This document shows, one piece after another, positions 1,835-63,992 of a stretch of DNA of 64,000 bases (position 1 is the first letter of the stretch; each line of letters starts with the position of its first letter). The notes under the pieces are model-generated. The model ran no database searches. It saw only the letters and a program-made list of their open reading frames with translations, and had not been told where the DNA came from. This DNA is from Nitrospirales bacterium. GTDB lineage: Bacteria > Nitrospirota > Nitrospiria > Nitrospirales > UBA8639. A program made the position numbers and the translations under genes. Location of the stretch: positions 4,000,001 to 4,064,000 of the forward strand of contig OY820905.2 of the NCBI GenBank assembly GCA_963555755.3. The letters run 5' to 3'.

Positions 1835-1975
1835 GGGCACCTCTAAAAACCGTCCTTTTCCGTGATGGCGGCGTCAGCCGCGTGCTCACATCCTCATGTA
1901 TTCGCCCATACACTCCGGTTTTCCGCGCGCGGCTTCCTTGCCCTCACAAAAAATGCCTGGTTTTTAGAGGTGCCC
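1835..1975. mobile_element. MITE-like element, family A
   Basis: TIR GGGCACCTCTAAAAACC / GGTTTTTAGAGGTGCCC; TTTA duplicated at 1831-1834 and 1976-1979; no coding capacity. Confidence 0.8.
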
Positions 1976-2069
1976 TTTAGTCAAACATTGTATCCTTATA
2001 CCTATTCATAGTGTGGTGTAGTCTCCGCGCGACGCGACACTTTTGTTTCGGCAAAAGTGCCCAAAACCA

Positions 2070-2729
2070 GTGTGCCGAGCATGTTCAACAGCTTGAGGGT
2101 GCAAGTCCCTTTGACAACCTGATGGAGGTGAAGTCATCGCGAAGCGCAAGGGCGTCGTCGTGAGGCGGGGTCTGAAGGAAGCGTAGAGCAACGGCGCGGG
2201 CCGATGAACAAGAACCAGATACGAGGCAGTCAGTGTCGGACGAGTGAGCTGGTTTTCACGAAGTTCATATCCATCAAGGGCATTGGGTGTACATCTGGCG
2301 GTCGTGCGCTGAAGGCGGTTGAGCGTACCTCGGGAGACCTCTCGTCTGTCTTGGTAGCAAGACTGAGAACTGAGTGATCAGTTCAGACCGGGCGGGAGGA
2401 GTCAGCAGAGGGCATAGTAGTCCCGCTAGGGATGAAAGCCTGAACGGTGCGGAGTGGTAAGTAGGCAGCGGAACTCATGAGCGACAAGCGGCTGAATGAC
2501 CAGTTAACCCTGGCCTTCCCGACAGAGGATATGGGTGAAGCCCTAAGGACTGACGAGGAAGTGTCGAATCGCTTGCGGCGAACCGCCCAGTCGAACGCCC
2601 GGCGAGGGGTGACCAGTTGAGAGTAGTTTCTCCTGGTGGCCAATCGCTTAACCCACCGAACCGCCGTATACGGACCCGTACGTACGGTGGTGTGACAGGG
2701 AAAGCGGGTGACCGCCTACCTATGTCGAT
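2070..2729 (+). mobile_element. Class C group II intron lacking its RT ORF (~660 nt)
   Basis: 5' GTGTG; short domain V ACCGCCGTATACGGACCCGTACGTACGGTGGT (2660-2691) with CGC triad; domain VI ending CCTATGTCGAT; inserted just after a stem-loop (2038-2059). Confidence 0.9.
2477..2620 (+). pseudogene. Probable N-terminal remnant of the intron-encoded protein
   Basis: MSDKRLNDQLTLAFPTEDMGEALRT... sits where domain IV is expected; no RT motifs (no YADD) remain. Confidence 0.5.
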
Positions 2730-3052
2730 TTTTTGCCCGTGCGCGTCCCCTCCGATCCTGCTCAGAGCAGGTTCTCCGGGGTCCCTCCGCCTCCGCCCTG
2801 ATTCAGGGCGGAGGCGGAGGGACCCCCTTGGGGCCGTAAACAGGCAGAAATGGTTTTGGGTCCTTTTGCCGAAACAAAAGAGCCTGTCCCGAGTCCGTCG
2901 AGGGGACCTCGTCTGCAGGGGCGAAACCCTGCATCTAAATAATTCCCCAAGAGACCCATCCCTAAAACCTACCTTATTGTAACCTAGAAATAGCATTTGG
3001 ATCACAACAGTTCGCGCAAGCTCCTGGCGCACCTGGCATAATAAAGAAATAT

Positions 3053-4064
3053 TATGCCTTCCCATTTGACTAAGGTTAGTCCCTAGACTAGTCTGCTGGA
3101 CTATGGACACAGGGTATGCTGCTGATATCTTGGATTTTTCTGTTAGGTTCCACACCGAAGAAGCGTGCTTCGAGTACTTGCGGGCGATTCGGTGGCCAGA
3201 CGGGTTTATGTGTCCAGCTTGCGGTCATCGCGGTGGTTGGTGGCTCAAAAAATATTTCCGGTTTGAGTGTTCGTCGTGTCATAGACAGACATCACCGCTA
3301 AGCGGCACAGTGATGCATAGATCGCACTTGCCGCTACGGCTTTGGTTTTGGGCTGCCTATTTCGTCTCCACGCACACACCTGGCATCAGTGCTGTGCAAT
3401 TGCAGCGTCAACTCAGTATCAAGAAGGTGGATAGCGCCTGGTATTTGCTCCACAGATTGCGACGAGGAATGATACGACAGAACCGTGAACGGCTCGCAGG
3501 AACAGTTGAAGCCGATGAAACCCATATCGGTGGACCGGTAAAAGGCAAAACGGGCCGTGGCGTCGCGAAAGCGAAAACCAAGACGTTAATAGCCGGAGCC
3601 GTAGAAATTGTCACGTACACACAAGGGGATCACTTTCGAGAGAAAGCAGGGCGTTTACGATTAGCGATTCTTCAAGACGCTGGAGAGAACGAGATCAAAG
3701 CATTCCTCAATAGCCATGTCGCTGAGGGCAGTAAGATCAAGTCCGATGGTTGGAAGGGATACTCGGCAAAAGCCTTGGCAGGATACGAACACCTGAGACG
3801 GACCCAGGGTGACCCAGCAAGTGCTGGGAAGCACGCTCCACACATCCATAGAGCGTTCGGCAATCTGCAGACCTGGCTGAACGGGATTCACCATGGAGTG
3901 GATTCAAAATACCTGCAACACTATCTTGATGAGTTTGTCTTTCGCTATAACCGCCGTGAGACTCCAATGAGTACCTTCCAGAGTTTGTTGAAAATCCTGA
4001 CCAGCAGCTCAAAACCCTTGGGATTCAATAAACTGAAGCAACCTTAGTTAAATGGGAAGGCATA
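3053..4064 (+). mobile_element. IS1595-family element (ISSod11-like), copy 1
   Basis: TIR TATGCCTTCCCATTTGACTAAGGTT / AACCTTAGTTAAATGGGAAGGCATA; 8-bp TSD AGAAATAT (3045-3052, 4065-4072). Confidence 0.95.
3103..4047 (+). CDS. IS1595-family transposase
   Basis: Zn ribbon CPAC...CSSC, VEADETHIGG, SDGWKGY, HIHRAFGNL, YLDEFVFRYNRR. Confidence 0.95.
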   Translation: MDTGYAADILDFSVRFHTEEACFEYLRAIRWPDGFMCPACGHRGGWWLKKYFRFECSSCHRQTSPLSGTVMHRSHLPLRLWFWAAYFVSTHTPGISAVQLQRQLSIKKVDSAWYLLHRLRRGMIRQNRERLAGTVEADETHIGGPVKGKTGRGVAKAKTKTLIAGAVEIVTYTQGDHFREKAGRLRLAILQDAGENEIKAFLNSHVAEGSKIKSDGWKGYSAKALAGYEHLRRTQGDPASAGKHAPHIHRAFGNLQTWLNGIHHGVDSKYLQHYLDEFVFRYNRRETPMSTFQSLLKILTSSSKPLGFNKLKQP

Positions 4065-4130
4065 AGAAATATTTTATCACCACCAGGGATTACTTCCCCT
4101 CCTTGTGGGCCTGTTGAATATTTCATTCCA

Positions 4131-5141
4131 TATGCCTTCCCATTTGACTAAGGTTAGTCCCTAGACTAGTCTGCTGGACTATGGACACAGGGTATGCTGC
4201 TGATATCTTGGATTTTTCTGTTAGGTTCCACACCGAAGAAGCGTGCTTCGAGTACTTGCGGGCGATTCGGTGGCCAGACGGGTTTATGTGTCCAGCTTGC
4301 GGTCATCGCGGTGGTTGGTGGCTCAAAAAATATTTCCGGTTTGAGTGTTCGTCGTGTCATAGACAGACATCACCGCTAAGCGGCACAGTGATGCATAGAT
4401 CGCACTTGCCGCTACGGCTTTGGTTTTGGGCTGCCTATTTCGTCTCCACGCACACACCTGGCATCAGTGCTGTGCAATTGCAGCGTCAACTCAGTATCAA
4501 GAAGGTGGATAGCGCCTGGTATTTGCTCCACAGATTGCGACGAGGAATGGTACGACAGAACCGTGAACGGCTCGCAGGAACAGTTGAAGCCGATGAAACC
4601 CATATCGGTGGACCGGTAAAAGGCAAAACGGGCCGTGGCGTCGCGAAAGCGAAAACCAAGACGTTAATAGCCGGAGCCGTAGAAATTGTCACGTACACAC
4701 AAGGGGATCACTTTCGAGAGAAAGCAGGGCGTTTACGATTAGCGATTCTTCAAGACGCTGGAGAGAACGAGATCAAAGCATTCCTCAATAGCCATGTCGC
4801 TGAGGGCAGTAAGATCAAGTCCGATGGTTGGAAGGGATACTCGGCAAAAGCCTTGGCAGGATACGAACACCTGAGACGGACCCAGGGTGACCCAGCAAGT
4901 GCTGGGAAGCACGCTCCACACATCCATAGAGCGTTCGGCAATCTGCAGACCTGGCTGAACGGGATTCACCATGGAGTGGATTCAAAATACCTGCAACACT
5001 ATCTTGATGAGTTTGTCTTTCGCTATAACCGCCGTGAGATCCAATGAGTACCTTCCAGAGTTTGTTGAAAATCCTGACCAGCAGCTCAAAACCCTTGGGA
5101 TTCAATAAACTGAAGCAACCTTAGTTAAATGGGAAGGCATA
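4131..5141 (+). mobile_element. IS1595-family element, copy 2 (hybrid flanks, 1-bp deletion)
   Basis: Same TIRs; left flank TCATTCCA, right flank AGAAATAT. Confidence 0.9.
4181..5047 (+). CDS. IS1595-family transposase, C-terminus truncated by a 1-bp deletion near 5040
   Basis: Identical to copy 3 up to FRYNRRE; GAGATCCAATG versus GAGACTCCAATG. Confidence 0.85.
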   Translation: MDTGYAADILDFSVRFHTEEACFEYLRAIRWPDGFMCPACGHRGGWWLKKYFRFECSSCHRQTSPLSGTVMHRSHLPLRLWFWAAYFVSTHTPGISAVQLQRQLSIKKVDSAWYLLHRLRRGMVRQNRERLAGTVEADETHIGGPVKGKTGRGVAKAKTKTLIAGAVEIVTYTQGDHFREKAGRLRLAILQDAGENEIKAFLNSHVAEGSKIKSDGWKGYSAKALAGYEHLRRTQGDPASAGKHAPHIHRAFGNLQTWLNGIHHGVDSKYLQHYLDEFVFRYNRREIQ

Positions 5142-5207
5142 AGAAATATTTTATCACCACCAGGGATTACTTCCCCTCCTTGTGGGCCTGTTGAATATTT
5201 CATTCCA

Positions 5208-6219
5208 TATGCCTTCCCATTTGACTAAGGTTAGTCCCTAGACTAGTCTGCTGGACTATGGACACAGGGTATGCTGCTGATATCTTGGATTTTTCTGTTA
5301 GGTTCCACACCGAAGAAGCGTGCTTCGAGTACTTGCGGGCGATTCGGTGGCCAGACGGGTTTATGTGTCCAGCTTGCGGTCATCGCGGTGGTTGGTGGCT
5401 CAAAAAATATTTCCGGTTTGAGTGTTCGTCGTGTCATAGACAGACATCACCGCTAAGCGGCACAGTGATGCATAGATCGCACTTGCCGCTACGGCTTTGG
5501 TTTTGGGCTGCCTATTTCGTCTCCACGCACACACCTGGCATCAGTGCTGTGCAATTGCAGCGTCAACTCAGTATCAAGAAGGTGGATAGCGCCTGGTATT
5601 TGCTCCACAGATTGCGACGAGGAATGGTACGACAGAACCGTGAACGGCTCGCAGGAACAGTTGAAGCCGATGAAACCCATATCGGTGGACCGGTAAAAGG
5701 CAAAACGGGCCGTGGCGTCGCGAAAGCGAAAACCAAGACGTTAATAGCCGGAGCCGTAGAAATTGTCACGTACACACAAGGGGATCACTTTCGAGAGAAA
5801 GCAGGGCGTTTACGATTAGCGATTCTTCAAGACGCTGGAGAGAACGAGATCAAAGCATTCCTCAATAGCCATGTCGCTGAGGGCAGTAAGATCAAGTCCG
5901 ATGGTTGGAAGGGATACTCGGCAAAAGCCTTGGCAGGATACGAACACCTGAGACGGACCCAGGGTGACCCAGCAAGTGCTGGGAAGCACGCTCCACACAT
6001 CCATAGAGCGTTCGGCAATCTGCAGACCTGGCTGAACGGGATTCACCATGGAGTGGATTCAAAATACCTGCAACACTATCTTGATGAGTTTGTCTTTCGC
6101 TATAACCGCCGTGAGACTCCAATGAGTACCTTCCAGAGTTTGTTGAAAATCCTGACCAGCAGCTCAAAACCCTTGGGATTCAATAAACTGAAGCAACCTT
6201 AGTTAAATGGGAAGGCATA
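5208..6219 (+). mobile_element. IS1595-family element, copy 3
   Basis: Same TIRs; 8-bp TSD TCATTCCA (5200-5207, 6220-6227). Confidence 0.95.
5258..6202 (+). CDS. IS1595-family transposase
   Basis: Same as copy 1 except one I/V substitution. Confidence 0.95.
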   Translation: MDTGYAADILDFSVRFHTEEACFEYLRAIRWPDGFMCPACGHRGGWWLKKYFRFECSSCHRQTSPLSGTVMHRSHLPLRLWFWAAYFVSTHTPGISAVQLQRQLSIKKVDSAWYLLHRLRRGMVRQNRERLAGTVEADETHIGGPVKGKTGRGVAKAKTKTLIAGAVEIVTYTQGDHFREKAGRLRLAILQDAGENEIKAFLNSHVAEGSKIKSDGWKGYSAKALAGYEHLRRTQGDPASAGKHAPHIHRAFGNLQTWLNGIHHGVDSKYLQHYLDEFVFRYNRRETPMSTFQSLLKILTSSSKPLGFNKLKQP

Positions 6220-6296
6220 TCATTCCAATAGCCAATAAAAGCTCCATATGAGCTATGGATCATCAACGGGAGGGAATGTTCAAAAAAGCATGCCCT

Positions 6297-7512
<1,216 letters not shown>

Positions 7513-7853
7513 GTCTTTCCGAAGGGTCTATCCAGCAAGGCCGCAGCCATTTTGACGCGCGGAGCGTACTCTCAGTACGTGAGCACGGCAAAAGGGCCAG
7601 AACGCCGCTGGCGGCTTTTTTCAACATTCCCCTTGTCATTTCTCCCAAGGGTCAAAATGACAGACCCGAGGTGACCACGACTTGTGGTATTGCACCATGC
7701 ACCCCAATAATCTTACGCGGCTTTTTTTGCGCCCAATCGTCGTTTCTAGGCTCATGAATTCTTGACCATCCTTCTGCATGGAGCAACAAACCGAAGTCGG
7801 CATTTTCAAAGAAAAGGATAACCAAGGATTTTGAGTGTAAACCCTCCTTTTTA

Positions 7854-7883
7854 TTGACAGGTCGAAGGCCCATATGCTAGAAG
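7854..7883 (+). promoter_or_regulatory. Possible sigma70 promoter of the respiratory cluster
   Basis: TTGACA at 7854-7859 and TGcTAGAAG (weak extended -10). Confidence 0.35.
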
Positions 7884-8263
7884 TCACCGACCTTTTTCCT
7901 AGAATATTCCTTCCTGTTATGGGGGTTGTGTAGGGGTTGAAACGGTGCTACTGGGCTCTCCTAAGGAAAAACGTATTATCTGGATGGGTCGTCTTGAGTA
8001 GCAACTCTCGAAATCGATTCTACGCGACCAATCCCACGCTACTTCCCACCGTTATCGTTGGAAAGGGTATGGATTGCCAATCGGGCCAGTACGCCTTATG
8101 AAATTGACCGCGGGCTATCCTTAATTGGGGGGGCATAGGGGCTTAGATTTGGCCAGGTGAGCGAAGGGGGAGAGCGTCTTTGCATTAAAGAAAAGGGGTC
8201 AAGGGATGGACTGTCCTTTTAGACTCGGAAAAGTTAATCAAAATATAAAAGGTGAGGAACTTT

Positions 8264-8881
8264 ATGAAGAGTGTGATGAGTCGAAGAATGAGTGCAGTGT
8301 TGGCATTGATGGTTATGGGATTCGCTTTATCGGCCTGTGGAGAAGCGAAACCTCCTCAACCGCCGCCACCAGCCCCACCCGAATATGCAGACAAGCATAT
8401 GCCTGACGGGTATTGGGGCAATGAGGAGATCATTGCCCAGGGAAAGGATATCTTCATTGGTAAAGAGAATATTGACGTGAATTGTGCCAGTTGCCATGGA
8501 AAAGATGGGAAACCCCTCAAAGCCGGAGCCAGGGATTTTCGTAAGGGTGACCATATGGCAAAGTTCTCTGATGCCCAATGGTTCTGGCGTGTGTCGGAAG
8601 GGATAAAGGGAACAAAAATGAAAGCTTGGAAATCCAAACTTTCCGAGGATGATCGGTGGAAGGTCATCGCTTGGGAGTCGACCTTTGGCCTAAAGGGACA
8701 GGAATATAGTGTTGCCGAGGAGAAATGGGTCGCACTTGGGACGGCCAAGACTGCTGAGGAGGTTGCTGCTGAGAAGGCTGCTGCTGAGGAAGCGGCCGCC
8801 AAGGTGAGTGAGCCTGCAGGCGGTGAAGCGGCTGGAGAGGCCCAAACTGAAAAAGCCTCGACTGAAGAAGCCCCGAAGTAA
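8264..8881 (+). CDS. Monoheme cytochrome c lipoprotein
   Basis: Lipobox LSAC, CASCH, distal Met in GTKMKAW; Ala/Glu-rich tail. Confidence 0.9.
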   Translation: MKSVMSRRMSAVLALMVMGFALSACGEAKPPQPPPPAPPEYADKHMPDGYWGNEEIIAQGKDIFIGKENIDVNCASCHGKDGKPLKAGARDFRKGDHMAKFSDAQWFWRVSEGIKGTKMKAWKSKLSEDDRWKVIAWESTFGLKGQEYSVAEEKWVALGTAKTAEEVAAEKAAAEEAAAKVSEPAGGEAAGEAQTEKASTEEAPK

Positions 8882-8912
8882 CACCTGGGAAATGTAAATA
8901 TTTAATGGTGAC

Positions 8913-10652: not shown

Positions 10653-10672
10653 TACATGTGGAGAAAGAAAAC

Positions 10673-20782: not shown

Positions 20783-21106
20783 CGACACAGACCTTAACCT
20801 AGGGAAAAAAAATCTGTCAACGACATGCGGATTCAACAGTGTTGTGATTCAAAAGAAACAGAACCCTAAGGACCTGAGGGAAAATAACTTGGACATCTCG
20901 CATCCAATCTTCGGGCCATCTTTGAACGGACCTCAATCGAAAAACCCTCAACATAGCTGTGCTATGTCTCGGGTTTTCCTCAATCGTTCCGTCCAAATCC
21001 GACCCAAATCTTGGCGCGATATTGTCCAAGTTATTTTCTCTCAGGTCCTAAGGCTCGGTGTGGTCACACCCGTGAAAGAGTTTTCTAAGAGATGGCTGGA
21101 GCGTTG

Positions 21107-22108: not shown

Positions 22109-22183
22109 GCCGGCGTAGCTCAGTGGCAGAGCAACGGTTTCGTAAACCGTAGGTCGGTGGTTCAACCCCACTCGCCGGCTCCA
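22109..22183 (+). tRNA. tRNA-Thr(CGT)
   Basis: Cloverleaf GCCGGCG...CGCCGGC-T-CCA; anticodon arm ACGGT-TTCGTAA-ACCGT; GGTTCAACCC T arm. Confidence 0.97.
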
Positions 22184-22188
22184 TTAAA

Positions 22189-25651: not shown

Positions 25652-25688
25652 AAGGAAGCGCCACGTTTTTCGTGGCGTTTCCTTTTTT
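25652..25688 (+). terminator. Intrinsic terminator
   Basis: AAGGAAGCGCCACG-loop-CGTGGCGTTTCCTTTTTT. Confidence 0.8.
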
Positions 25689-25790
25689 ATGCCCAAGATA
25701 CAACCCCGTATGGTCAAAAACTCATCCAGCCTTGCGGTTCTTCAAAACTCAAATATTTTAATGGGGATGAATGTATAGAAGGGACAGGAG

Positions 25791-38546: not shown

Positions 38547-38593
38547 TTCGTAAACCGTAGGTCGGTGGTTCAACCCCACTCGCCGGCTCCATT
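38547..38593 (+). repeat. att site: duplicated 3' half of tRNA-Thr
   Basis: Exact copy of 22139-22185. Confidence 0.95.
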
Positions 38594-42143: not shown

Positions 42144-45100
42144 ATGGCTGACTCATCTTCCAACCAGATCTTCGCAGAACCATCTTCTTCGTCCGTCGAT
42201 TTCCAGGACCAGATCGGTCTTCAAGCTCGGCTCATTGTCGAGCAGGCTTTGGATGCCATCATCACCTTTGATGCCAATGGCCTCATTACCCATGGGAATC
42301 CCCAAGCGGAGCGTCTTTTTGGTTGGATCCAACGCGAGGTGGTGGGTCAGGCCTTTACGGATGTGGTGTTAGCTCCGCAATACCGTGAAAGTTATACTCG
42401 TGGCATTCAACGCTTTCTCGCTTCAGGGGATGATACGCTTCTCAATAGACGAGCCGAGACGATGGCCCTTAATCGGGATGGATCAGAATTTCTCGTGGAA
42501 ATGTCATTATGTCCGTTGGACCTTGGCGGAACCTATTGCTTTAGTGTCTTTTTAAGAGATATTCGTGAGCGTCGACAATCCGAACGAGCGTTGCTCCGAG
42601 AGACCATGCTGGTCCAACTGCATCAGGGTGTGGCCTCGGCAGCCAATGAGTCGCCAACGGTGGAGTTGGCATTAGAGTCGAGCCTCAATTGGGTGTGTGC
42701 GTTACTCGGTTGGTCAGTTGGGCATGTGTGGCTGTATTCCAAAGAAGAGAAACGGTTGACCTCAAGCCGTATTTGGTTTCTTGACCATCCGAGCCGGTAT
42801 GATGGGTTTCGAACGGCGACAGAAGGCCTGTCTCTCCTGTCTGGGGAAGATCTCCCTGGTAGGGTTCATCAGAGCCGGCAACCTATCATGACCCAGGAGG
42901 TGTGCAAGGAAATGTCCACGGCTCGATCGTCACTGGCTGAGTCGGCTGGCTTGGTGTCGAGTTTTGCCTCGCCTATCGTGGTTGGTGTGGATGTTGTCGC
43001 GGTGATGGAATTTTTCTCAGATAAACAAGAAGAAATGGACGATCGGCTTTTGGATTCCATGGTGTCGGTTGGGGTGCAACTAGGCCGTGTCATCGAACGA
43101 AAAGAAGTCCAAGAAGAATTGGTGAGCGCGAAAGAGGCGTCGGAAGCGGCAGCTCGGACCAAGTCAGAATTTCTCGCGAATATGAGCCATGAGATCCGCA
43201 CACCCATGAATGGTGTCATTGGGATGACTGGACTTCTTCTTGACACCCCACTGTCGACCGAGCAACGAGATTTTGCCGAAACGGTGAGAAACTCGGCAGA
43301 GGCCTTGCTGACGATCATCAATGACATCTTAGATTTTTCTAAAATTGAAGCCGGAAAGCTCGACCTTGAAATGATTGACTTTGATCTTCGGGTGGCCGTT
43401 GAAGAGGTCGTCGAATTATTGGCGGAAAAAGCTGAGGACAAAGGTATTCAACTTGCCTGTCTGCTGCACTCCGATATCCCCCATGAAACGAAAGGGGATC
43501 CAGGACGGTTTCGACAGGTGCTGATCAATTTGCTTGGCAACGCGGTGAAGTTTACTGAACAGGGCGAAGTGGTGGTTCGTGTGAACACAGTCCACGACAG
43601 CCAGGAAGGCACTGTCATTCGTGTGGAAGTGGCCGATACGGGGATCGGCATTTCGGAGGAACACCAAGATCGACTGTTTCAGTCTTTCACGCAAGCCGAC
43701 AGTTCTACCACGCGAAAATACGGAGGCACGGGATTAGGGTTAGCGATCTGTAAGCAGCTGGTTGGTGTAATGGGCGGACAGATTGGATTCACTAGCGAGC
43801 CAGGAAAGGGCGCGACCTTTTGGTTTACGGTGTGTTTGCAACCAGTGACTCAGGTGTCCGAATCCGGAAATAGTAGCCGAGGGAAGCTCAAGGGGCTGCG
43901 CGTGTTGATCGTTGACGACAATTCCACCAACCAAAAAATATTGGAATACTATGTGAAGGCCTGGGAGATGGATAGCGTCAGTGTGCGGGACGGACCCTCA
44001 GCGCTCCATGCGCTTCGTCAAGCTGCCGCCGAGGGCCGGTCGTTTGATTTGGCATTGCTCGATATGCAGATGCCTCACATGGATGGGCTGGCCTTGGCAC
44101 AAGCCATTCAACAGGACCCTGGCCTGGCATCGGTCAAACTTGTGATGTTGACGTCCTTGGGTCGTCGGGGAGATGCCGAGAAAGCCAAACACGTGGGCAT
44201 CGCGGCGTACTTAACCAAGCCGATTCGTCAAGTTGTGTTGTTTAACAGTTTAAGTATGTTGGTTGGGACAGAAGGGAAGGGTGAGGCCCCTCAGCTGGTG
44301 ACCCGACATACTGTCAAAGAAGTACAGCGGAGGGAAACGGTTCATATTTTATTGGCCGAAGATAATCTTGTGAACCAAAAAGTGGCAGTGCGAATGCTCG
44401 AACGTCTGGGATTTCGTCCGGATGTGGTCAAAAACGGGTGTGAGGCCGTAAAAGCCTGTGAGCAGGGCACGTATCACCTGATTCTCATGGATTGCCAGAT
44501 GCCAGAAATGGATGGATTTGAAGCGACGCAGGTAATTAGAAAACGCGAAGAGTCGCTCATCGCTGGGACCTCCTCGCGTGTAAATGGTGAATCGGTTCCA
44601 GGAAAAGACGAGGAACGAGCGATCAGCACGCAGCGGCACATTCCAATCATTGCCATGACCGCCAATGCCATGAAAGGTGATCGTGAGAAATGCTTGGAAG
44701 CTGGCATGGACGGTTATCTCGTGAAACCGGTGAAGCCCGAGATTCTCGAAGACATGATTCTTCGATGGCTTCCCAAGCCCTCGGAAGGCCTGCCCTTCCT
44801 GGTGGTGAGACAGGAAGAATCCTTCGTCGGGTGTCTGGATGAGCAAGTGCTCCGGGACTTAGAATCCTTGGGTGATGAAAAACAGCCTGATTTTCTCAAA
44901 ACCGTGATTCAGCAATTTTTGGAGGATCAACCGAAGCATATCACCGCAGTTGAAACCGCCATCGAGGACAAGGATGCCTTGGCCCTTCGATTGGCTGCCC
45001 ATTCTTTGAAAGGGAGCAGTTGTAATGTCGGGGCTCGGGCCCTAGCCAGTCGTGCCATGGAATTAGAAAAATTAGGTGCAGCCGGCACGCTTGATGGTGT

Positions 45101-45200
45101 CGAGCCTCTTCTCGTAGCGTTTCAAAAAGAATGTCGTCGGGCTCGCCGGGCACTTGCACAACGTATCGGCACTCAATCCGTTGGCTCTGGGGGCTGTTGA
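42144..45200 (+). CDS. Hybrid histidine kinase (PAS-GAF-HisKA-HATPase-REC-REC-Hpt)
   Basis: [32 protein letters not shown], two receiver domains, AHSLKGSS. Confidence 0.95.
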
Positions 45201-45356
45201 AAAAGCATGCCCTGAGTCTTTCCGAAGGGTCCCAGCGGCGTTCTCGGCCCTTGGTCGTGCTCACGTACTATGAGTACGCTCCGCGCGCCAAAGTGCCTGC
45301 GGCCTTTCCTTCGACAAGCTCAGGACAGGACTGGACGGGCCTTTTTGAACAGCCCC
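45190..45356. mobile_element. MITE-like element, family B, with two REP-like hairpins
   Basis: TIR GGGGCTGTTGAAAAAG / CTTTTTGAACAGCCCC; contains GCCCTGAGTCTTTCCGAAGGG and CCTTCGACAAGCTCAGGAC. Confidence 0.8.
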
Positions 45357-45463
45357 TTTCCCTACCTTTCGATTTTCCAACTTATCATTCCATCTTCTCA
45401 ACCGGCACTCCCTGTGTTATACACACCTCCAGATTGTAGCGCGGACCTTTTGGCCTTGGTTCA

Positions 45464-45894
45464 ACCTAGAAACAGCAGTTGGATCACAAAAGTCCGCGCA
45501 AGCTCTCAGGGTCCGTCACGAAATAACCGGGACAATTGGCCGAGACGATTTTGGAGCGAGCCAAGGAGCGAAGAGCGCGCATACCGGGAGTATGGAAGCG
45601 ATGAGCGACGCCGGCGGAGCCCAAAAGCGTCCGGCCCTGCGGGGAGGCCCATCTTTGGCCCGGGGCGGCGTTGCTCCTCGGTCACAGAGCCCCGCTCTGC
45701 TCCCTCGTCGCGCCTTGCCCCGATCACAAATCTGGGCCTCCCAATTGTCCCGGTTATTTCGTGACGGACCCTTAGCGCACCTGGCAAAATAAAAAAATGT
45801 CTCATCACCACGAAGGTGACCACGACTTTTTTTATTTCACCATGCACACCAATATCTTACACGGCTTTTTTGTGTCCAACTGCTGTTTCTAGGT
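45464..45894. mobile_element. MITE-like element, family F (hosts family D)
   Basis: Perfect TIR ACCTAGAAACAGCAGTTGG / CCAACTGCTGTTTCTAGGT with TCA duplication; halves homologous to 2982-3052 and ~7668-7751. Confidence 0.8.
45509..45771. mobile_element. MITE-like element, family D
   Basis: 31-bp perfect TIR GGGTCCGTCACGAAATAACCGGGACAATTGG; flanks TCA/TTA. Confidence 0.85.
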
Positions 45895-45929
45895 TCAAGC
45901 CCACTGTTGACTCCTCAACGTTTTCTCCT

Positions 45930-54492: not shown

Positions 54493-54649
54493 GGGTTCGC
54501 ACAAGAATAACTTCCCATGTTTGGGCGTTGATCCATCCCGTCTGGCGGCGTTGCTCGTCCTTTCCATACGAGGAGTATGCGCAGTCCTCCCGCCTTGCCA
54601 GACAGGTGTCTCAGCACCCAAACATGGGAAGTTATTCTTGCGCGAACCC
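54493..54649. mobile_element. MITE-like element, family C
   Basis: TIR GGGTTCGC(A/G)CAAGAATAACTTCCCATGTTTGGG; TAA duplication. Confidence 0.85.
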
Positions 54650-56163: not shown

Positions 56164-56169
56164 CCATCC

Positions 56170-57012: not shown

Positions 57013-57070
57013 AGGCTGAAGAGCTGAAGGCTACACTCATAATATGATCCCCCCTAACAGCCTTCAGCCT
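57001..57070. repeat. GCTGAAG heptamer repeats with inverted copies
   Basis: GCTGAAG x4 at 57001-57030; CAGCCTTCAGCC at ~57058-57069, between convergent genes. Confidence 0.6.
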
Positions 57071-57098
57071 ATCCACCTGAGTTACGGCTGCTGATGGA

Positions 57099-57533
57099 TT
57101 ACCGACGGACCGTTTGAACGGGATACCCAGCCTCGGCCCAGGCATTCATGCTGCCTGCCACATTATAGACGTGTGTATACCCAAGGCCGGCCAATGTTTC
57201 GGCGGCAATATTGCTTCGGTGTCCAGACTGACAGTACACCACAATGTGATCTTCGAATCGTGCGCCGATTTCCTGATGCCGCGCGCCGATTTCCCGAAAA
57301 TCAATGTTCCGGTCGGTGCCCGGAATAAATCCCATGCTATGCTCATCTGCTGTCCGAACATCAATCAGAGTGAAACCTTTTTGAGCGAGGTTGGGTGCTT
57401 TGTTTAATCCACCGTTCAGTTCATGGACGGTGAGCAAGTACGTATCGTTGGCCGCGGAAACAACGTTCCCGGTTGAGACAACAAAGGTGCTGCATATAAA
57501 GAATAGTGCCAGAGATGTTTTCCAATTAATCAT
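57099..57533 (-). CDS. Exported rhodanese-domain protein
   Basis: LIDVRT..EH..GFIPG, YCQSGHRS, GSMNAW. Confidence 0.9.
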   Translation of the reverse strand: MINWKTSLALFFICSTFVVSTGNVVSAANDTYLLTVHELNGGLNKAPNLAQKGFTLIDVRTADEHSMGFIPGTDRNIDFREIGARHQEIGARFEDHIVVYCQSGHRSNIAAETLAGLGYTHVYNVAGSMNAWAEAGYPVQTVRR

Positions 57534-57585
57534 GGGACCCTCCATTCGGTTCAACGGGTAGAATCCGTTCTTCTGAGAAACAGCG

Positions 57586-57942
57586 ATGTGGGAATCGAAG
57601 CGCTTGATACAATATCGTATGCCCTGTCTTTATCAATGGTCAAGAGTCTGGATCGTCTTTGGGGTGTTTCTGCTGGCGGGGTGCGGGGATGGCCTCAAAA
57701 TGGTTCGCGAAGGGGATCGTACGGGTGTGATGACGTATCTCTACAAAGGACCAGACGGTCATATGTTCACCCCACGGAGAGGAGAAGCATTTCAGGAAAT
57801 TCAAGAGTTTTGCCGAGGGCCTTTTGATGTGGTGCGTGAAGGCCAGACCAAAGGTCGCCAACGGGTGGTGGAAGGGGTAGTCGGGTCGGACATCATTGTG
57901 GAAAACTGGTGGGGCATTCGGTTCCAATGCGTGGATTCGTAG
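57586..57942 (+). CDS. Hypothetical lipoprotein (start uncertain)
   Basis: LLAGC lipobox. Confidence 0.7.
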   Translation: MWESKRLIQYRMPCLYQWSRVWIVFGVFLLAGCGDGLKMVREGDRTGVMTYLYKGPDGHMFTPRRGEAFQEIQEFCRGPFDVVREGQTKGRQRVVEGVVGSDIIVENWWGIRFQCVDS

Positions 57943-57955
57943 CTTTAAGGGTAGG

Positions 57956-58534
57956 CTAGGATGCTGGGGCGGGTTTAGCCGCTTTTAAATCTTCCAATGT
58001 TAAGAGACTCATCAGCGAAACCCCTTCTGCTTCGACTTTGCTTTTCCCCTCCTGTTCCTGTCGATCCACGATGACCATCGCATGGGATGCATGAAGCTTC
58101 GCCTCCTCCACGGCACGAAGAGCTTGCAAAATTGACCCACCGCTAGTCAGAACATCATCGACAACTAACACCCGATCATTGGCGTTCACAGCACCTTCAA
58201 TTCGTTTCCCCAGCCCATGGTCTTTCGCCTGTTTTCGGACGAAAAATGTGCGGTAGGTTCTCGAAGGTTGAGTCGCGAAGGCATAATCGGATATAGCTGT
58301 GGCTAGGGGAATGGCGCCAATCTCCAAGCCGCCCACGGCTTCAAACGAGAGGTGGTGAATGGCGGCACAAGCCAGGTTGGCCACGAGCCACCGGGCATCG
58401 GGGTGAGCTAACAGTGCACGGCAGTCCACGTAATAGGGACTCTTTTTCCCCGAGGCAAGGAGAAATCCCTCATCGGGGTCCCATTTAAACGCTTCGTACT
58501 TCCAGAAAAACGCTGCCAGTTGTTCTTTGTACAT
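57956..58534 (-). CDS. pyrE: Orotate phosphoribosyltransferase
   Basis: LASGKKSPYYVDCR, RKQAKDHG, VVDDVLTSGGS. Confidence 0.95.
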   Translation of the reverse strand: MYKEQLAAFFWKYEAFKWDPDEGFLLASGKKSPYYVDCRALLAHPDARWLVANLACAAIHHLSFEAVGGLEIGAIPLATAISDYAFATQPSRTYRTFFVRKQAKDHGLGKRIEGAVNANDRVLVVDDVLTSGGSILQALRAVEEAKLHASHAMVIVDRQEQEGKSKVEAEGVSLMSLLTLEDLKAAKPAPAS

Positions 58535-58649
58535 GGAAAAGAGGTGCCGGTTGAATGAATAATATTCACCTTTTCTATCATTCAACGATCAACAAAGGCA
58601 AAGGTGAACCGCATAGTCTCGAAACACGCGGTGATGGAGAAACTCAAAG

Positions 58650-59501
58650 ATGTTTAGAATTAGAAAACGCCCCATAAAGCCTGAGAAAGACCCGGAGCTG
58701 TACAACGTGTTGGAGAATTACACGGATTTCGATCCTCCAGGAAATGTCATGGTGTGTGCCATGACCTGCGACGAAGACATCGAGCATCATGCGAAAATCC
58801 TGGGAGGAAGTTATGGGATTCCCGTTGAAGACATCCAGGCCTTGCTGGAGACAGGTGGGCTGTATACGTATCCGCAGTCAGGAGGTGTGGTCACCCGAGG
58901 GTTGTTTGTGTGCAAGGTCGATCCGACAGGTGAGGCGCCTAAACAAACCTGGGTATTGGATTTGCAACAAACAGCAGAAACCGAGCAATTGGCGCGGTTT
59001 TCAGACATTACCCTGATTGAAGCTGCCGAGCGTGTGTTTTATCGTGGTTTGCCCAAAGAATTGCAAACCCGACTCACACAAAAAAATCTGGGGCTGGATT
59101 ATTCCAAGCTCGATCGGTCTGTGGCCAAAGGTGGGGACATCACCTATATCGATTTTCGAAAAGATTGGTCCCCGTATTTCAAACGCAAATGCACCATGCC
59201 CAATGGATCAATGGTGGAGACTGGAGGCATTCAGGAATTCGCGACGTTGCATGGAATTACGGTTTCGCAAGCCGAAGAGCTGATGGATCAGGGCGGGACA
59301 CTCGAAATTGAAGATGGTGTGCTCGCATGTCAGGTGATCAACAACCAACCCACCGTCGCGCGATTCAATAGCAAACAATACGCCAAAGCCAAAGAGTTAA
59401 TGGAATCCAAAGACCTGCATATCATGGATGCGTTGAGCGAAATGGCGCTCAATGATCCTATTTTGATGCGTGCGCTTCGACGTATCGAGCGAGAGAATTA
59501 A
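58650..59501 (+). CDS. Hypothetical protein with internal repeat
   Basis: 283-aa ORF, RBS GGAG. Confidence 0.8.
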   Translation: MFRIRKRPIKPEKDPELYNVLENYTDFDPPGNVMVCAMTCDEDIEHHAKILGGSYGIPVEDIQALLETGGLYTYPQSGGVVTRGLFVCKVDPTGEAPKQTWVLDLQQTAETEQLARFSDITLIEAAERVFYRGLPKELQTRLTQKNLGLDYSKLDRSVAKGGDITYIDFRKDWSPYFKRKCTMPNGSMVETGGIQEFATLHGITVSQAEELMDQGGTLEIEDGVLACQVINNQPTVARFNSKQYAKAKELMESKDLHIMDALSEMALNDPILMRALRRIEREN

Positions 59502-59536
59502 GACAGTCCTTGGTTTGCCTCACCGATGAACTGAGC

Positions 59537-59986
59537 TTATTCCCACCCAATAGGTTTATACCCTCGATCTTTCAAGCAGGTGTTCACAAATTTTTTGTAG
59601 ACCTCGCTGGGACCTGATTTTCGAAGTACAGATCGCAGAAGTCCGCCTGTGGCTCCGACCGCCGCGCCAATGGCAGCTCCTTTTCCGGCTGATCCCTGTA
59701 TCGCTCCAATCACGGCTCCGGAAGCCGCACCAACACCGGCACCAACGGCTGTCCCCTGTGCCACTTCCATACCTTTGTTGCTTGAAGACGTATGCGCATC
59801 GGCTAAATCTTTGCACTCGGCAATGTCTAACTCTGCCTGCTCATGCCCAACGGTCTCAAAATGATCGTTTGGGTACAGCACTGGTTTTGGTCCCGCACAA
59901 CCCAATAGGAGCAATGACGTCAGTCCACCAATGATTATCATTGTGAACGGGTGAGTTATCAAATAGGTCGAATCTTCCATTTTCAT
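59537..59986 (-). CDS. Glycine-zipper lipoprotein
   Basis: LLGC lipobox; GTAVGAGVGAASGAVIG; CLKDRGY. Confidence 0.85.
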   Translation of the reverse strand: MKMEDSTYLITHPFTMIIIGGLTSLLLLGCAGPKPVLYPNDHFETVGHEQAELDIAECKDLADAHTSSSNKGMEVAQGTAVGAGVGAASGAVIGAIQGSAGKGAAIGAAVGATGGLLRSVLRKSGPSEVYKKFVNTCLKDRGYKPIGWE

Positions 59987-60110
59987 ATCGTAGTTATCTT
60001 AACACGACCGTCCCTCAGGTCCAGATGGAGTAAGATTGCTGGGTATTTAGTTGGAATTGTTTCGGAGATAAAGCGTGTAAAAGAAGGTGAGGTTTGATAT
60101 TCATTTTGGT

Positions 60111-61267
60111 CTAACTTGATTGGTCAGTCTCTCCCCGGAACAACTGCACGTAAGCGGCGAAAATAAAAAGCCGATTTCGTTTTTGTCCAGTCATCTCACG
60201 CAGAACATCAAGTTTTATGAAATCTGTGATAAGGGCTGCCGCGGTGTTGGTCTGCACTTTGAGGCGTTCGGCCACTAATTTGATGGTTACCACTGGGTAT
60301 TCATACAACAGTCGCATAAGGGTCTGAGCGTTGTGTATACGTCGGGCATGGAAGGTGGGCATGACTTCGCGTTCTAGACCTTCTTTGAGGGTGAGAATGT
60401 TCTTAAAGACCTGACTGGATTGAGCTGCTGTTTCGGAAATGCCCAGAAGAAAAAATCGCAACCAGGGTTCCAGTTTGTTGGTGGTTCGCACAGCCATGAG
60501 TTGATCATAGTATTCGGCTTTATGGCGCTCGAAAAAATCAGAGAGTAGAGCGCAGGCTTGTGCAACAGGCCGAAGCTGACCAAATATAAGACAATGAGTA
60601 GGCGCCCCAGACGTCCATTTCCGTCCAGAAACGGATGGATGGTCTCAAATTGATAGTGGATGATGGCAATCTTGATCAGGTGCGGCACATGGATGGCTTC
60701 ATTGTGCATGAACTGTTCAAGGTCACTCATCAAATCTGGCACGTGATCGTGGTGAGGCGGAATAAAGGTCGCGTGTTTGAGGTTGATGCCAATCCAGTTT
60801 TGGCTCGTCCGAAAATCTCCAGGAAATTTGTGTTTTCCCCGCACGCCTTGTAAGAGCACAGCGTGGGTTTCCTTTATCAAGCGATTTGACAAGGGTAGTG
60901 TGGGCAGTTGTTGAATAGCATAATTGGTGGCTTTGATATAATTCTGCACCTCTTGCCAATCCAGACGTTTTTCCGGATCGACATCGCTTTCATTGACTAA
61001 GGCCTCATCGAAGTTGGTCTGAGTCCCCTCGATTCGACTGGAGGTGGTTGCTTCTTTGGTGATATGCATCCGGATAAAAAAGTCTACATCCGGGATGAGT
61101 TGGGAATAGGCATTCAGTTCACCAAGGAGCAGAGTGGCTTCTTCTAGCAAGGTGAGAGTTTGTGGGTCTACTTGCCATTCTTTATTGATTGCCGTGGGGA
61201 GGAAGGTTTTGTATTCGTACTCCTGCTCGTAAGATCCTGCGTGGAAGGTATTGATATTTATAGGCAT
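60111..61267 (-). pseudogene. Fic-family protein, frameshifted near 60545
   Basis: [18 protein letters not shown]; the other frame continues [19 protein letters not shown]. Confidence 0.85.
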
Positions 61268-61629
61268 TTTTTCAGCATGGCTACAATTTGATATTGCCAA
61301 GTCATTTATGTCAATTTGTGACCATTAACTGACATAAGCGAAATTATATGTCAACTCATTTGTTGGTGCATAAACACAGATTCAGGGATGTGGGGTCAAA
61401 TGCGAGGTGGGTTCAGGCCTAGATATGGGGTCATTGTCGATTCGTTCTGTTGTCAGGGATATCCTCCATGCAGTGGCGGACTGATTGCAGGTGATAATCT
61501 CCTCTTTAACGAGGCGGAAATTGGGGTGCCGGTCATTAAAAAAAGGGTCAATCTTATTTATTAATTGATTGGGAAGTGGCCTATATTTTTTTAACGTAGA
61601 AATTGCAGTTAGGCGCGATGTAGTTCAAG

Positions 61630-62460
61630 TTATTTTTTCGCGAGCCCTAAGGGCGGGCGGATTTTTCGGATGATTTCTTTCATAAGAATTTTTTTCGGCA
61701 CCCAATTTGTGAGGAGGGACCAAAGCGTACCTTGCCATCCAATGGTGACGACCGTTTGATTTTTCTGTAAGGCCGCAAGGGATACCTGAACGACTTGTGA
61801 AGCCGTCTGCATGGAGATGGGGCTCGATGGCTGAAACCCCGCGGAAGCATGAAAGTCTGTTTCCGTCTGGCCTGGGCAACAGGCTTGTATGTGGACTCCT
61901 GTTGACTGTACTTCTTCGGCAAGTGCTTCGGAAAAGGAATTGAGAAACGCCTTGGTGGCCGCATACTCTGCCAGGTATGGCATGGGGAGCATCCCTGCAA
62001 TCGAGGACACGTTAATGATAGCCCCTGATCCACGTTCTATCATGCCAGGGAGAAACAGCCGAGTGCTTTCCACGACCGTTTGGATATGCAAATGGAGCAT
62101 CTCCTGAATGCGTGGCAAAGAATGCGAGACAAACTCACCGTATAACCCAAAGCCGGCGTTGTTGATTAAGAGGTCCGGCGTCGGTCGATAATTTCTGGCG
62201 ACCACGAACAATTGATGGGCGGATTGGGGTTGGGCCAAATCAAGGACACACACATGTGCGTGAATGGACTGGTTCGTCTCCAGTTCGTGCGAGAGTTGCG
62301 TCAGGCGTTCTTCATCTCGTGCCACCAGAAGAAGATCATAGCCTTGGCTGGCCAGCACACGGGCATACTCGGCGCCAATGCCTCGTGAGGCCCCAGTGAT
62401 AATGGCAAAGGGGGGATCCGATGTCGTCAAATCGAGGACTCTCTCTCCAGCCATCATCAT
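61630..62460 (-). CDS. Short-chain dehydrogenase/reductase
   Basis: TGASRGIG, NNAG, YAATK. Confidence 0.95.
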   Translation of the reverse strand: MMMAGERVLDLTTSDPPFAIITGASRGIGAEYARVLASQGYDLLLVARDEERLTQLSHELETNQSIHAHVCVLDLAQPQSAHQLFVVARNYRPTPDLLINNAGFGLYGEFVSHSLPRIQEMLHLHIQTVVESTRLFLPGMIERGSGAIINVSSIAGMLPMPYLAEYAATKAFLNSFSEALAEEVQSTGVHIQACCPGQTETDFHASAGFQPSSPISMQTASQVVQVSLAALQKNQTVVTIGWQGTLWSLLTNWVPKKILMKEIIRKIRPPLGLAKK

Positions 62461-62590
62461 CGTGATTTAAATCGTTCACGCCAAAGATCAAAAAAAGAAA
62501 TCGGACTAATTTCTACCAACCTCTCGGTTATCCTAGCGTGTCTTTAGGAAACGTCAAGGTAGCCGAAAAAGAAGGCGAAGGCATGGTTAA

Positions 62591-62750
62591 GAGCCTGTCC
62601 GAGATTAGACGAATCTACTGAGGATGCGCTGGTTTGAGTCAGATGTTTCGATCCTTTTCGTTGAATAGTCCCACTATTCGCCTCAAACAATCGAAACATC
62701 TGACTCAAACCAGCACTCCCTCGTGACGATCGCTAATCTCGGACAGGCTC
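62591..62750. mobile_element. MITE-like element, family E
   Basis: TIR GAGCCTGTCCGAGATTAG / CTAATCTCGGACAGGCTC; long internal palindrome; partial second copy at 48691-48786. Confidence 0.85.
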
Positions 62751-62788
62751 CTAGCGGGTATCTTCTCCAATTACTATAAAGGTTTCGG

Positions 62789-63592
62789 ATGATAATTGAA
62801 CAGGAAACACGGCGTGATCTCGAATACACGTTGGCAAAGATCGAGAGAGAGTCGGATCTGCTCGTGAAAACGGTGACGGATGCCGCCACCGCCGTGAAAA
62901 AAATTCGCAGCGCAGCCAGTGTGGGAGACTTTCAAAAGCTTCGAGCTGCGCTGGAGGAAGCAAACCAAGCCGCCTCCCGGCTTCAGCAGGGCTTGGAAGC
63001 GACGACCCATAGTTGGGAGTTTGATGAGGTGGCCTATCTGTCGGGGGTTGATTTTCAACAGGACATGTTGGTTATGGCCGAACAGATGGGGGTTGATCTT
63101 ATTGAGCACGAGGGGGTGTTGTTTGCCTACCCCGCGCTAGTTCGGATTCTTCCTAAAGACATGGCGGTCACCATCGATCGCGTTCGTGAAACACGGCTGC
63201 GACCTTCCCACTTGATCAAACGGTTAAAAGATTTACAAACGAGACCGTATCGATTCAAATCCCATGAATTTGTGGCGATCTTGTATGCGGCCTATTCCAT
63301 TGCGGTTGGGATTCGAGGCAAGCATCTTCTTGGAACCGGCATTGTGATTCCGTTAATGGAGATTTATGATTTATTAACGATGTTGCCGCGACAATCATTT
63401 GAGTATACGCGGCAAGAATTTGCACGAGATCTCTACTTCCTCGATAAAAGTGGTGTGACGAAAACGAAAAAGGGACACCAACTTCACTTCCATGCCAGTA
63501 CTGGAATCAAAGACGCAACCAAGACCTTGAGTGTGATTACACAGGGTGGACGGTTGCGGACGTATTACGGCACATCCTTTACTCCTGCGTAG
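62789..63592 (+). CDS. Hypothetical protein with coiled-coil N-terminus
   Basis: 267-aa ORF, protein-like composition. Confidence 0.75.
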   Translation: MIIEQETRRDLEYTLAKIERESDLLVKTVTDAATAVKKIRSAASVGDFQKLRAALEEANQAASRLQQGLEATTHSWEFDEVAYLSGVDFQQDMLVMAEQMGVDLIEHEGVLFAYPALVRILPKDMAVTIDRVRETRLRPSHLIKRLKDLQTRPYRFKSHEFVAILYAAYSIAVGIRGKHLLGTGIVIPLMEIYDLLTMLPRQSFEYTRQEFARDLYFLDKSGVTKTKKGHQLHFHASTGIKDATKTLSVITQGGRLRTYYGTSFTPA

Positions 63593-63783
63593 GAAAACGT
63601 TAGACGGTAGGCGGGAGTCGGGAGGTAGTCTATCTCTTTTCCCCTCTTTCGCCTCACGCCTTTCGTCTCACAAGGGTCACAAGGGGCATGAGGTGCTGTT
63701 GATCGAAGTTTGACTCCTTCAATCGATCCTCTTCTGGCCCGTGCAAGAATTTTGGAACCCTTCCGATAGCTTTAGGGGTAGGA

Positions 63784-63835
63784 GGCGAAAGGGCAAACTG
63801 CCTGAGAGGGCAGGACGCAACGCCAAGAGACCCGA
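63784..63835 (+). promoter_or_regulatory. c-di-GMP-I (GEMM-I) riboswitch-like aptamer, 5' part
   Basis: AAAGGGCAAA-CTGCCT-GAGA-GGGCAG-GACGCAA-CGCC matches the GGCAAA/GNRA/GACGCAA P2 signature. Confidence 0.7.
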
Positions 63836-63992
63836 GGGTTCGCGCAAGAATACCTTCCCATTTTGGGGTGCTGAGACACCCGTCTGGCAAGGTGCGAGGA
63901 CTGCGCATACTCGTGGTATGTACGGGACGAGCAACGCCGCCAGGCGGGATGGATCGACGCCCAAAGAAGGGAAGTTATTCTTGCGCGAGCCC
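63836..63992. mobile_element. MITE-like element, family C (inverted relative to 54493-54649)
   Basis: GGGTTCGCGCAAGAATA ... TATTCTTGCGCGAGCCC; internal sequence homologous. Confidence 0.85.

Follow-up and report, generated by a model that had tools for sequence, protein, structure and literature searches.

The window considered here, which is the whole stretch of 64,000 nucleotides analysed, carries seven copies of one structured core inside MITEs of four families (A–D, Table 1). The cores lie at the positions and on the strands claimed in the original prediction and are the top seven window matches of covariance model R3, ranking 1–7 among 15 matches (60.8 to 14.7 bits); D1 is barely over background, since the next-ranked match scores 14.2 bits. 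The extents proposed earlier could be kept for the A element (1835–1975), and elsewhere they covered mostly cores rather than entire elements. The B copy placed at 7532–7611 contains the core and is only the right-hand portion of a MITE; an IS110-family element interrupts this MITE, and 12/12 close genomic copies of that element begin at the same B-arm site. The candidate assignment of the core to an autonomous IS was rejected, since the 1.36-kb B elements proved to be MITEs with IS110 inserted in them. The two D copies are indeed two oppositely oriented cores, both of which lie within one element nested in another MITE; the empty-site joint for this insertion (45504–45771) was found in 4/4 runs. 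The family F MITE was absent from the original prediction. The loop of the family G hairpin resembles the basal module of the core (judged by eye, unscored).

Table 1. Mobile elements of the window and the cores inside them.
Feature	Position	Strand	Remarks
A MITE	1835..1975	-	141 bp; 4-bp target duplication TTTA
A core, 70-nt form	1870..1939	-	one reading frame matches RPE1 profile TIGR01045
B MITE (B1)	6272..7631	+	left arm interrupted by IS110-family element
IS110-family element	6297..7510	+	inserted at CT core; transposase ORF 6523-7512
B1 core, 70-nt form	7537..7606	+	covariance-model match
F hairpin MITE	20865..21053	-	B'-type apical module and G·A loops; without AAGG/AACGC base
B MITE (B2)	45190..45356	-	extra short hairpin between AAGG and closing stem
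B2 core, 70-nt form	45237..45306	-	covariance-model match
Outer MITE without shared core	45460..45898	.	hosts family D insertion
D MITE	45509..45771	.	263 bp; TNA target context; two different cores, opposite orientation
D1 core, 50-nt form	45563..45612	+	
D2 core, 50-nt form	45667..45716	-	
C MITE, first copy	54493..54649	-	157 bp; TAA duplication
C1 core, 50-nt form	54547..54596	-	
G hairpin MITE	62586..62754	-	GAGGCG/CAACGA loop directly beneath apical hairpin
C MITE, second copy	63836..63992	+	
C2 core, 50-nt form	63889..63938	+	

About 745 copies of the core are present in the genome. A loose pattern (AAGG...RACGC plus stem) matched contig C1 418 times, and two shuffled versions 47 and 45 times. 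The claim that different terminal repeats surround one core was borne out genome-wide, where at least five kinds of ends were recognized. The elements are MITEs by their terminal inverted repeats, their size below 500 bp (about 120–263 bp) and the lack of a transposase. Target-site duplications were detected for family A (4 bp, 91/113), family C (3 bp, 75/132) and family E (8 bp, 7/12), for family D in only 12/45 cases, and in none of the 82 family B elements examined. The ends of family C match an IS630-type element (L001) and those of family E an IS66-type element (12 copies) of the same genome, both of these elements being without the core. In the commonest C form the 5' arm is identical to nt 1–52 of the IS630-type terminal repeat, and the core starts directly after it. 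Partner IS for families A, B and D were not found in this genome. Amplification does not depend on the core, as MITE families lacking it also number tens to hundreds of segments. Outside this genome, four core loci were found in viral contigs, and of 72,556 plasmid records one query matched none and the other a single one. Depth over the repeats in assembled contigs rises as copy number predicts and carries no strand or end information.

For the purine-rich strand, the predicted fold is a long stem in which two mismatch modules are fixed, the basal C-AAGG/AACGCM-G and the apical GAG-C/G-TGA; the stem that connects them covaries freely. Two core lengths are preferred, 50–53 nt and 69–73 nt, which are ~10 bp or about one helical turn apart. 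The apical stem pairs as claimed: GTAC/GTAC in B, ATAC/GTAT in C and D1, GTAT/ATAC in A and AGAG/CTCT in D2. In 44 sequences, double changes in the stem were well above those in shuffles (181 cells vs 66.9), in line with the predicted covariation, and the covariation score was 0.45 against at most 0.10 in slid controls. Among the mid-stem arms the own partner was the best pairing in 33/38, and compensatory swaps are observed within family B itself. The covariation claimed for the closing stem failed for C, where this stem is mostly the end of the IS630-type terminal repeat and its pairing therefore is not independent covariation; in B2 the insertion of a short hairpin has shifted the CCAGC half away. 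The supposed invariance of AAGG and ACGCC did not extend to ACGCC beyond the window, where ACGCA is common. AAGG was located upstream in 92/112 loci although it was not part of the search pattern, with a spacing of 18–20 nt in 90/112; the 3' spacing was 17–19 nt in 104/112. RNAalifold recovered only the apical stem of the mixed long-form alignment A3, because registers differ among families. A K-turn reading of the apical module was put aside on inspection, as the best register against the K-turn consensus leaves a 1-nt bulge.

The mismatches A·C, A·G, G·A and C·A are fixed in 42–44 of 44 rows, in which the 3' letters and AAGR were preset by the selection patterns, and the adjacent pairs vary. 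The fold is strand-specific, with 62 G·A mismatches vs 7 T·C. Together with the covariation, this count supports the view that a folded, strand-specific unit with tandem G·A pairs is under selection and is moved between unrelated transposon ends. Template switching homogenises inverted repeats without selection, so the core could be functionless now, representing one old MITE that was spread horizontally, with arms drifted or swapped and with strand-switch correction of the palindrome mimicking compensation. This explanation, with which the partly IS-derived pairing of the C closing stem also agrees, is improbable: correction would erase mismatches, yet the four listed above stay fixed, and both the fixed spacing and the avoidance of the modules by shared variants in family B speak against it.

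Tandem G·A pairs and strand specificity would suit RNA equally, and with RNA parameters the purine-rich strand gave the more stable fold in 39/44 sequences. The core could thus act as RNA for element spread: read-through transcripts of the purine strand would bind a conserved protein or would resist or direct a ribonuclease, only module-intact copies would breed, and the daughters would land either way, with which an absent orientation bias is compatible. RNA and single-stranded DNA motifs are hard to separate computationally (PMC5737381). An excess of G·U was not found (G·T 21, A·C 19), nor was a preference for stable tetraloops (1 GNRA and 0 UUCG among the 60 loop types listed). DDE transposases act on DNA, and the ends and target duplications observed here are of the DDE-transposase type. 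The 290 ORFs around 80 outside loci include no recurring family (neither reverse transcriptase nor another gene adjoining the core) and no match to nine transposase queries. With these points against it, an RNA form of the element-spread signal is rather unlikely.

The elements resemble REP/REPIN-RAYT systems as dispersed strand-asymmetric hairpins in hundreds of copies, and differ from them by IS-type terminal repeats with target-site duplications and by the lack of linkage to Y1 genes. HUH enzymes read imperfect single-stranded DNA hairpins strand-specifically, which fits the core, and 17 Y1-domain matches occur in the genome. That an HUH (Y1/RAYT) transposase moves the core as a REP/REPIN-like hairpin without regard to the terminal repeats is nevertheless very improbable, since these repeats bound the mobile unit, as the duplications and the empty site indicate. 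RAYT linkage was rejected: a core lies within 300 nt of 3/17 Y1 genes vs 24% of 600 random genes.

The original prediction could assign the core to no named family. This does not hold, since the core is the centre of ERIC and of RPE-1, and its basal module is common to Correia elements. Models built without enterobacterial, Neisseria or Rickettsia repeat rows match 13/13 K-12 ERICs, 4/4 RPE-1 copies and, weakly, 4/4 Correia elements; with R3 all 13 ERIC cores were matched, RPE-1 copies at E 2e-6 to 9e-5 and Correia at E 0.013–0.023. A published description of a core shared by ERIC, RPE-1, Correia and these MITEs was not found in the literature search. In the review passages cited here, the three named repeats are treated as separate and lineage-restricted, with middles without a known role.

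ERIC (IRU, RU-1; 127 bp) has the same two modules and spacing class as the core described here (73-nt core). Model R2, built only from the B/B' copies of this genome, matches E. coli K-12 in exactly two places, both with ERIC primer sites (E 6e-4), whereas the short-form model R1 has no match there. The fold and the conserved central inverted repeat of ERIC (the ERIC1R/ERIC2 primer region) are shared, as a partial sequence match rather than identity at primer level. ERIC possesses TA ends and its own terminal repeat, according to the cited part of PMC2229807. The families described here have neither its 127-bp length nor its terminal repeat nor TA at both ends; they have other terminal repeats and 3-, 4- or 8-bp duplications.

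Rickettsia RPE-1 (TIGR01045) shares the central hairpin architecture, with a 70-nt core, an A-type base and a near-identical apical module. Peptides of A and E match TIGR01045 alone among 18,950 families (E 0.002 and 0.001), and 108/110 genome-wide matches of the RPE1 profile are A or E cores. All 110 matches are below the curated cut-off (15–21 vs 30 bits) and cover the central 21–24 positions (14/17–37) of the full 48. The arms of RPE-1 differ from those found here, and the RPE-1 copies tested lie in long open frames. Correia elements of Neisseria (CREE/NEMIS) have a 53-nt core that shares the basal module; their apical module differs (no GAGC/GTGA), and their 26-bp terminal repeat with TA ends is absent from the families described here. 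A 22-base family E pattern matched four loci of the viral collection, 4/4 carrying the whole printed Correia repeat or its larger part, which lends weak support, the basal match being inherent in the pattern's construction. R2 gave only partial matches to RPE-1 and Correia (E above 0.2).

The Rfam search proposed as a check was performed: over the whole window no family at gathering score was found for the core, and on 45100–45900 with E up to 10 the only match was a generic hairpin far below gathering. Five ungapped core words were compared with the Weinberg 2010 motifs in one alignment supplement; four had no match and the remaining one matched four unrelated places. As gapped rows can hide matches, this sets Desulfotalea-1 and other non-Rfam motifs apart from the core only in part. 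Pneumococcal BOX was considered as a candidate sharer of the core. The BOX queries retrieved no true BOX element: the sole primer match was a chance one in coding-like DNA, and a second pattern gave none.

Type II prokaryotic MITEs likewise have IS-shared terminal repeats, target-site duplications, nested insertions and no transposase, and are presented as decayed IS copies in the cited sections of PMC10969869. Unlike in that picture, the interior here has another origin than the cognate IS and is conserved between IS families as well as between phyla. A shared, covarying core of fixed geometry in several IS families and many phyla implies that selection can act on the interior of a bacterial MITE in its own right, and it offers a concrete way into the long-standing question of why the ERIC centre is conserved. 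The present analysis adds the link to RPE-1, the length classes one turn apart, the exact junction with the IS end and the test of where selection acts.

Overall, the core has no orientation bias relative to genes in co-oriented gaps (163 sense vs 150 antisense) or at gene 3' ends (132 vs 131). Single families deviate, with p values uncorrected and ORF calls crude: B is antisense-biased near gene 3' ends (47 vs 82, p=0.003), A tends towards sense (37 vs 21, p=0.048) and D1 towards the leading strand (33 vs 13, p=0.0045). Module mutations arise in family B yet seldom spread, as is partly shown by its 134 copies: rare variants occur in the modules at the normal rate (0.65 vs 0.56–0.58 per position), and shared variants are depleted (0.10 vs 0.71–1.0, Fisher p=0.0016). 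The same test was not significant for A (p=0.67) and C (p=0.80).

The RNA-processing role originally suggested is not favoured, given the lack of orientation bias to genes. As has been suggested for Yersinia ERIC and Neisseria Correia elements, the host could keep the core as a portable signal for mRNA stability or processing (RNase E or RNase III). Effects of ERIC on RNA (RNase E), destabilising depending on orientation, are reported in the cited part of PMC2229807, and cleavage of Correia RNA by RNase III in that of PMC10969869; the antisense bias of family B at gene 3' ends points the same way. The cleavage sites given in the latter passages fall in the terminal repeats, outside the core (PMC10969869). 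With a strand-specific fold, yet equal numbers in both orientations at 3' ends, and with modules of individual copies mutating freely, retention by the host has a low probability.

The best explanation, adopted tentatively, is that the repeats are non-autonomous transposons with IS-derived ends, in which one ERIC/RPE-1-type hairpin has likely been kept as favouring copying, probably as folded single-stranded DNA read by a putative widespread host protein. Transposases of the IS630- and IS66-type elements would move the MITEs in trans, leaving the target duplications and the empty site. With this spacing, a protein or a ruler-like enzyme would meet both modules on the same face of the helix. 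Selection would operate during copy multiplication and not at the insertion site, as the family B variants partly indicate. The aided step could be end pairing, the element being very short, or a shielding of the hairpin against nucleases, and a new family could originate as the core picks up the ends of an IS that is active locally. Against a copying signal in single-stranded DNA, lagging-strand copies might be expected to prevail if the step took place at the fork; overall, the two strands are about equally occupied (344 leading vs 358 lagging). A further reading, possible and more doubtful, is that the core is the selfish unit itself: old, pan-bacterial and transposase-independent, it would repeatedly hijack the ends of active IS and, with its two mismatch modules in helical phase, recruit a putative conserved host protein. 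On this reading ERIC, RPE-1, Correia and many unnamed MITEs would form one superfamily.

The transposase gene of the IS630-type element L001 looks intact, and the exact ends of this element recur on a MITE; the genome offers a matched pair of a transposase gene and a MITE bearing its ends.

The core-bearing MITEs of this genome are ERIC-type-centre elements that are real, widespread and under selection. All seven cores of the original prediction were found at their positions in the window, and the predicted fold of each is a stem with internal loops. A loose core pattern gives 418 matches on C1, the contig holding the window (at 4000001-4064000), versus 47 and 45 in two shuffles. With family HMMs, C1 yields 745 copies that do not overlap, a count that includes partial copies (B 305, C 185, A 127, D1 50, D2 46, E 19, B' 13; D1 and D2 are the oppositely oriented cores of the D element). 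Six of the families were tallied for length, and 663 of their 732 copies are near full length. Core-less MITE families are likewise abundant in this genome.

The core had been considered unassignable to a named family; it in fact matches the centre of ERIC, of RPE-1 (NCBIfam TIGR01045) and, more weakly, of Correia, known repeats of enterobacteria, Rickettsia and Neisseria, respectively. R2, a covariance model trained on nine of this genome's B/B' copies, detects two places in E. coli K-12 (E 6e-4), both containing ERIC primer sites (primer sequences as printed in PMC10117815); the primers match without mismatch at 3 of 13 pattern-found loci. R3, a model without rows from any of the three repeats, matches 13/13 ERIC cores (E 4e-9 to 0.2), 4/4 RPE-1 copies (2e-6 to 9e-5) and 4/4 Correia elements (0.013–0.023), all E-values being rough; its off-target matches reach at most 14.5 bits. 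The RPE-1 copies were chosen independently, by TIGR01045 above cut-off in a Rickettsia endosymbiont genome. TIGR01045 is the sole NCBIfam family matched by translated A and E cores, 108 of the 110 RPE1 matches genome-wide lie on these cores, and the other five of seven core peptides have no NCBIfam match. Correia loci were retrieved with the family E pattern, and the independent evidence is only their Correia identity (4/4 contain all or most of the repeat printed in PMC5039591); their apical module is unlike that of the core. The MITEs described here do not belong to ERIC, RPE-1 or Correia, because their ends differ.

The shared core is apparently not in print. Openly accessible literature, including the available parts of PMC2229807, PMC3184786, PMC10969869, PMC2864571, PMC11602168, PMC3049150, PMC5737381 and 10.1101/2021.07.10.451892, was searched and gave no paper describing a core common to ERIC, Correia and RPE-1, or a single core combined with the ends of several IS; papers under subscription are mostly beyond this scope, and De Gregorio 2005 is covered via reviews only. 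Supplements S1.DOC, S3.PDF and S7.STO of PMC2864571 lie outside the comparison and may bear on novelty.

In the 50-nt form, tandem G·A pairs are predicted to be interspersed with short stems. The lone pair flanked by two tandems is G-C, A-T or C-G depending on the family, and both sides change in 10 of 19 pairs (five distinct rows, few and related). The long-form alignment comprises 44 rows, 38 from other genomes (<80% identity) and six from this one, with one Rickettsia row excluded. Paired cells make up 86.9%; double-changed cells number 181 versus 66.9 in shuffles, and the covariation score is 0.45 versus at most 0.10 in slid controls. The invariance of the apical stem, the 3' basal letters and AAGR in these rows arises by construction, since the search pattern fixed the first two and the row filter the third. 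In 33 of 38 cases the 5' arm of the mid-stem pairs better with its own 3' arm than with any other. Mismatches on the purine-rich strand at 12 chosen pairs (G·A 62, G·T 21, A·C 19, T·C 7) agree with the tandem G·A pairs proposed earlier; the pattern is strand-specific, and G·U is not in excess. An RNA acting as the copying aid proposed below is a doubtful candidate.

Outside this genome, an AAGG-free pattern retrieved 112 loci from 3 of 64 parts of the GTDB collection (about 2,800 stretches estimated). Their titles name Nitrospirota, Nitrospinota, Desulfobacterales and other deltaproteobacteria, Alpha- and Gammaproteobacteria, Scalindua, Bacteroidales, Chlorobiaceae, Arcobacteraceae, Bacillaceae, Clostridia, Polyangiaceae and Rokubacteria; the nearest B-type matches are Nitrospirales. 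Upstream AAGG, although absent from the pattern, occurs in 92 of the 112 loci, its spacing is 18–20 nt in 90, and the 3' spacing is 17–19 nt in 104 (13–24 permitted), with widely varied terminal repeats. Core lengths are 50–53 or 69–73 nt, a difference of about 10 bp of stem. Prevalence is patchy: with top candidates only scored, the short model is positive in 7/60 other genomes of the phylum and the long model in 4/38 others around a Bacillus genome. Four viral-collection loci (L184-L187) carry the apical and 3' basal motifs with AAATGG or AAACGG replacing AAGG, by sequence a basal variant as in several alphaproteobacterial GTDB hits.

The IS-type ends and the presumed mobilisation in trans accord with established MITE biology. 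The core is best read, tentatively, as a cis-acting aid to copying that would act as folded single-stranded DNA read by a host protein. Covariation supports the strand-specific fold and fixed spacing; we infer the protein, DNA over RNA, and the step helped. Of three families examined, one supports selection at copying: in family B (134 copies) rare variants are as frequent in modules as elsewhere, and variants common to at least four copies avoid the modules (p=0.0016). The corresponding difference is not significant in family A (118) or C (152). Descent without function is an unlikely explanation of the core. Control of host mRNA is improbable as well: among 702 well-scoring copies with crude ORF calls, overall strand bias is absent between co-oriented genes (163 sense, 150 antisense) and near 3' ends (132, 131). 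Replication-strand bias is also absent overall (344 leading, 358 lagging). Taken singly, some families deviate, and not all the same way: B is biased to antisense (p=0.003), A to sense (p=0.048) and D1 to the leading strand (p=0.0045), all uncorrected. In 80 outside loci, no recurring gene family adjoins the core. HUH mobility is very improbable; Y1/RAYT genes are not enriched for the core nearby.

The ends differ between families. Family A (141 bp) has a 4-bp duplication in 91/113 copies, C (157 bp) 3-bp TWA in 75/132, D (about 263 bp) a TNA context, exact in 12/45, and E (about 141 bp) an 8-bp duplication in 7/12; no consistent duplication was found among 82 B copies. A single element of 1,218 bp, coding for an IS630-type transposase (HTH + DDE_3), shares the ends of C, and a 2,413-bp DruA + IS66 element (12 copies with 8-bp duplications) those of E; both lack the core. 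Where C has its most frequent form, its 5' arm is IS repeat nt 1–52, and the next base begins the core. Partner IS for A, B and D were looked for and not found.

Coordinates of features (window unless a locus is named)
Feature	Position	Observation
Inverted-repeat element	2040-2880	Arms 2040-2069, 2851-2880; contains the intron domains
Group II intron domains	2154-2729	Rfam D1-D4-3, D1-D4-1, Intron_gpII; long RT ORF absent
IS1595-family element, three in tandem	3053-6224	1,077-1,078-bp spacing; middle ORF begins 4181, shorter (288 vs 314 aa)
IS110-family element	6297-7510	Interrupts B1 copy; 11 other places on G000:C1
MITE families F, G	20865-21053; 62586-62754	Hairpins with single or rearranged module, suggesting modules can occur apart
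tRNA gene	22109-22185	3' 47 bp recur at 38547-38593, 16.4 kb downstream
R3 hit ranked eighth	25655-25740	14.2 bits; adjoins IS6 gene; by eye weak AAGG...AACGCC, apical module absent; probably chance
Empty site at D	45504 to 45771	Connected in contigs from 4/4 runs, skipping element
C-type + D2-type core halves	45696-45708 joined to 54555-54569	Related organisms' contigs; novel apical letters; hint of core chimerism, though assembly or mapping may have produced the joins
IS66-type element, example	L002:83-2495 (G000:C1:996882-999294)	First gene matches Pfam DruA (PF14236), replacing usual IS66 accessory genes
Interrupted family A MITE	L003:104-1599 (G000:C1:2350503-2351998)	1.35-kb insert within apical stem; TTAA borders whole unit; 229-aa ORF of insert without Pfam match
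Core array, Rouxiella aceris contig	L087:2001-2536	Five cores in tandem, 122-bp spacing

All 12 close copies of the IS110-family element begin at one and the same CT site, which lies in the left arm of a B subfamily; the element is a parasite of that MITE. The stretch between the tRNA gene and its 47-bp repeat holds many IS6 and IS630 pieces and looks like an integrated island.
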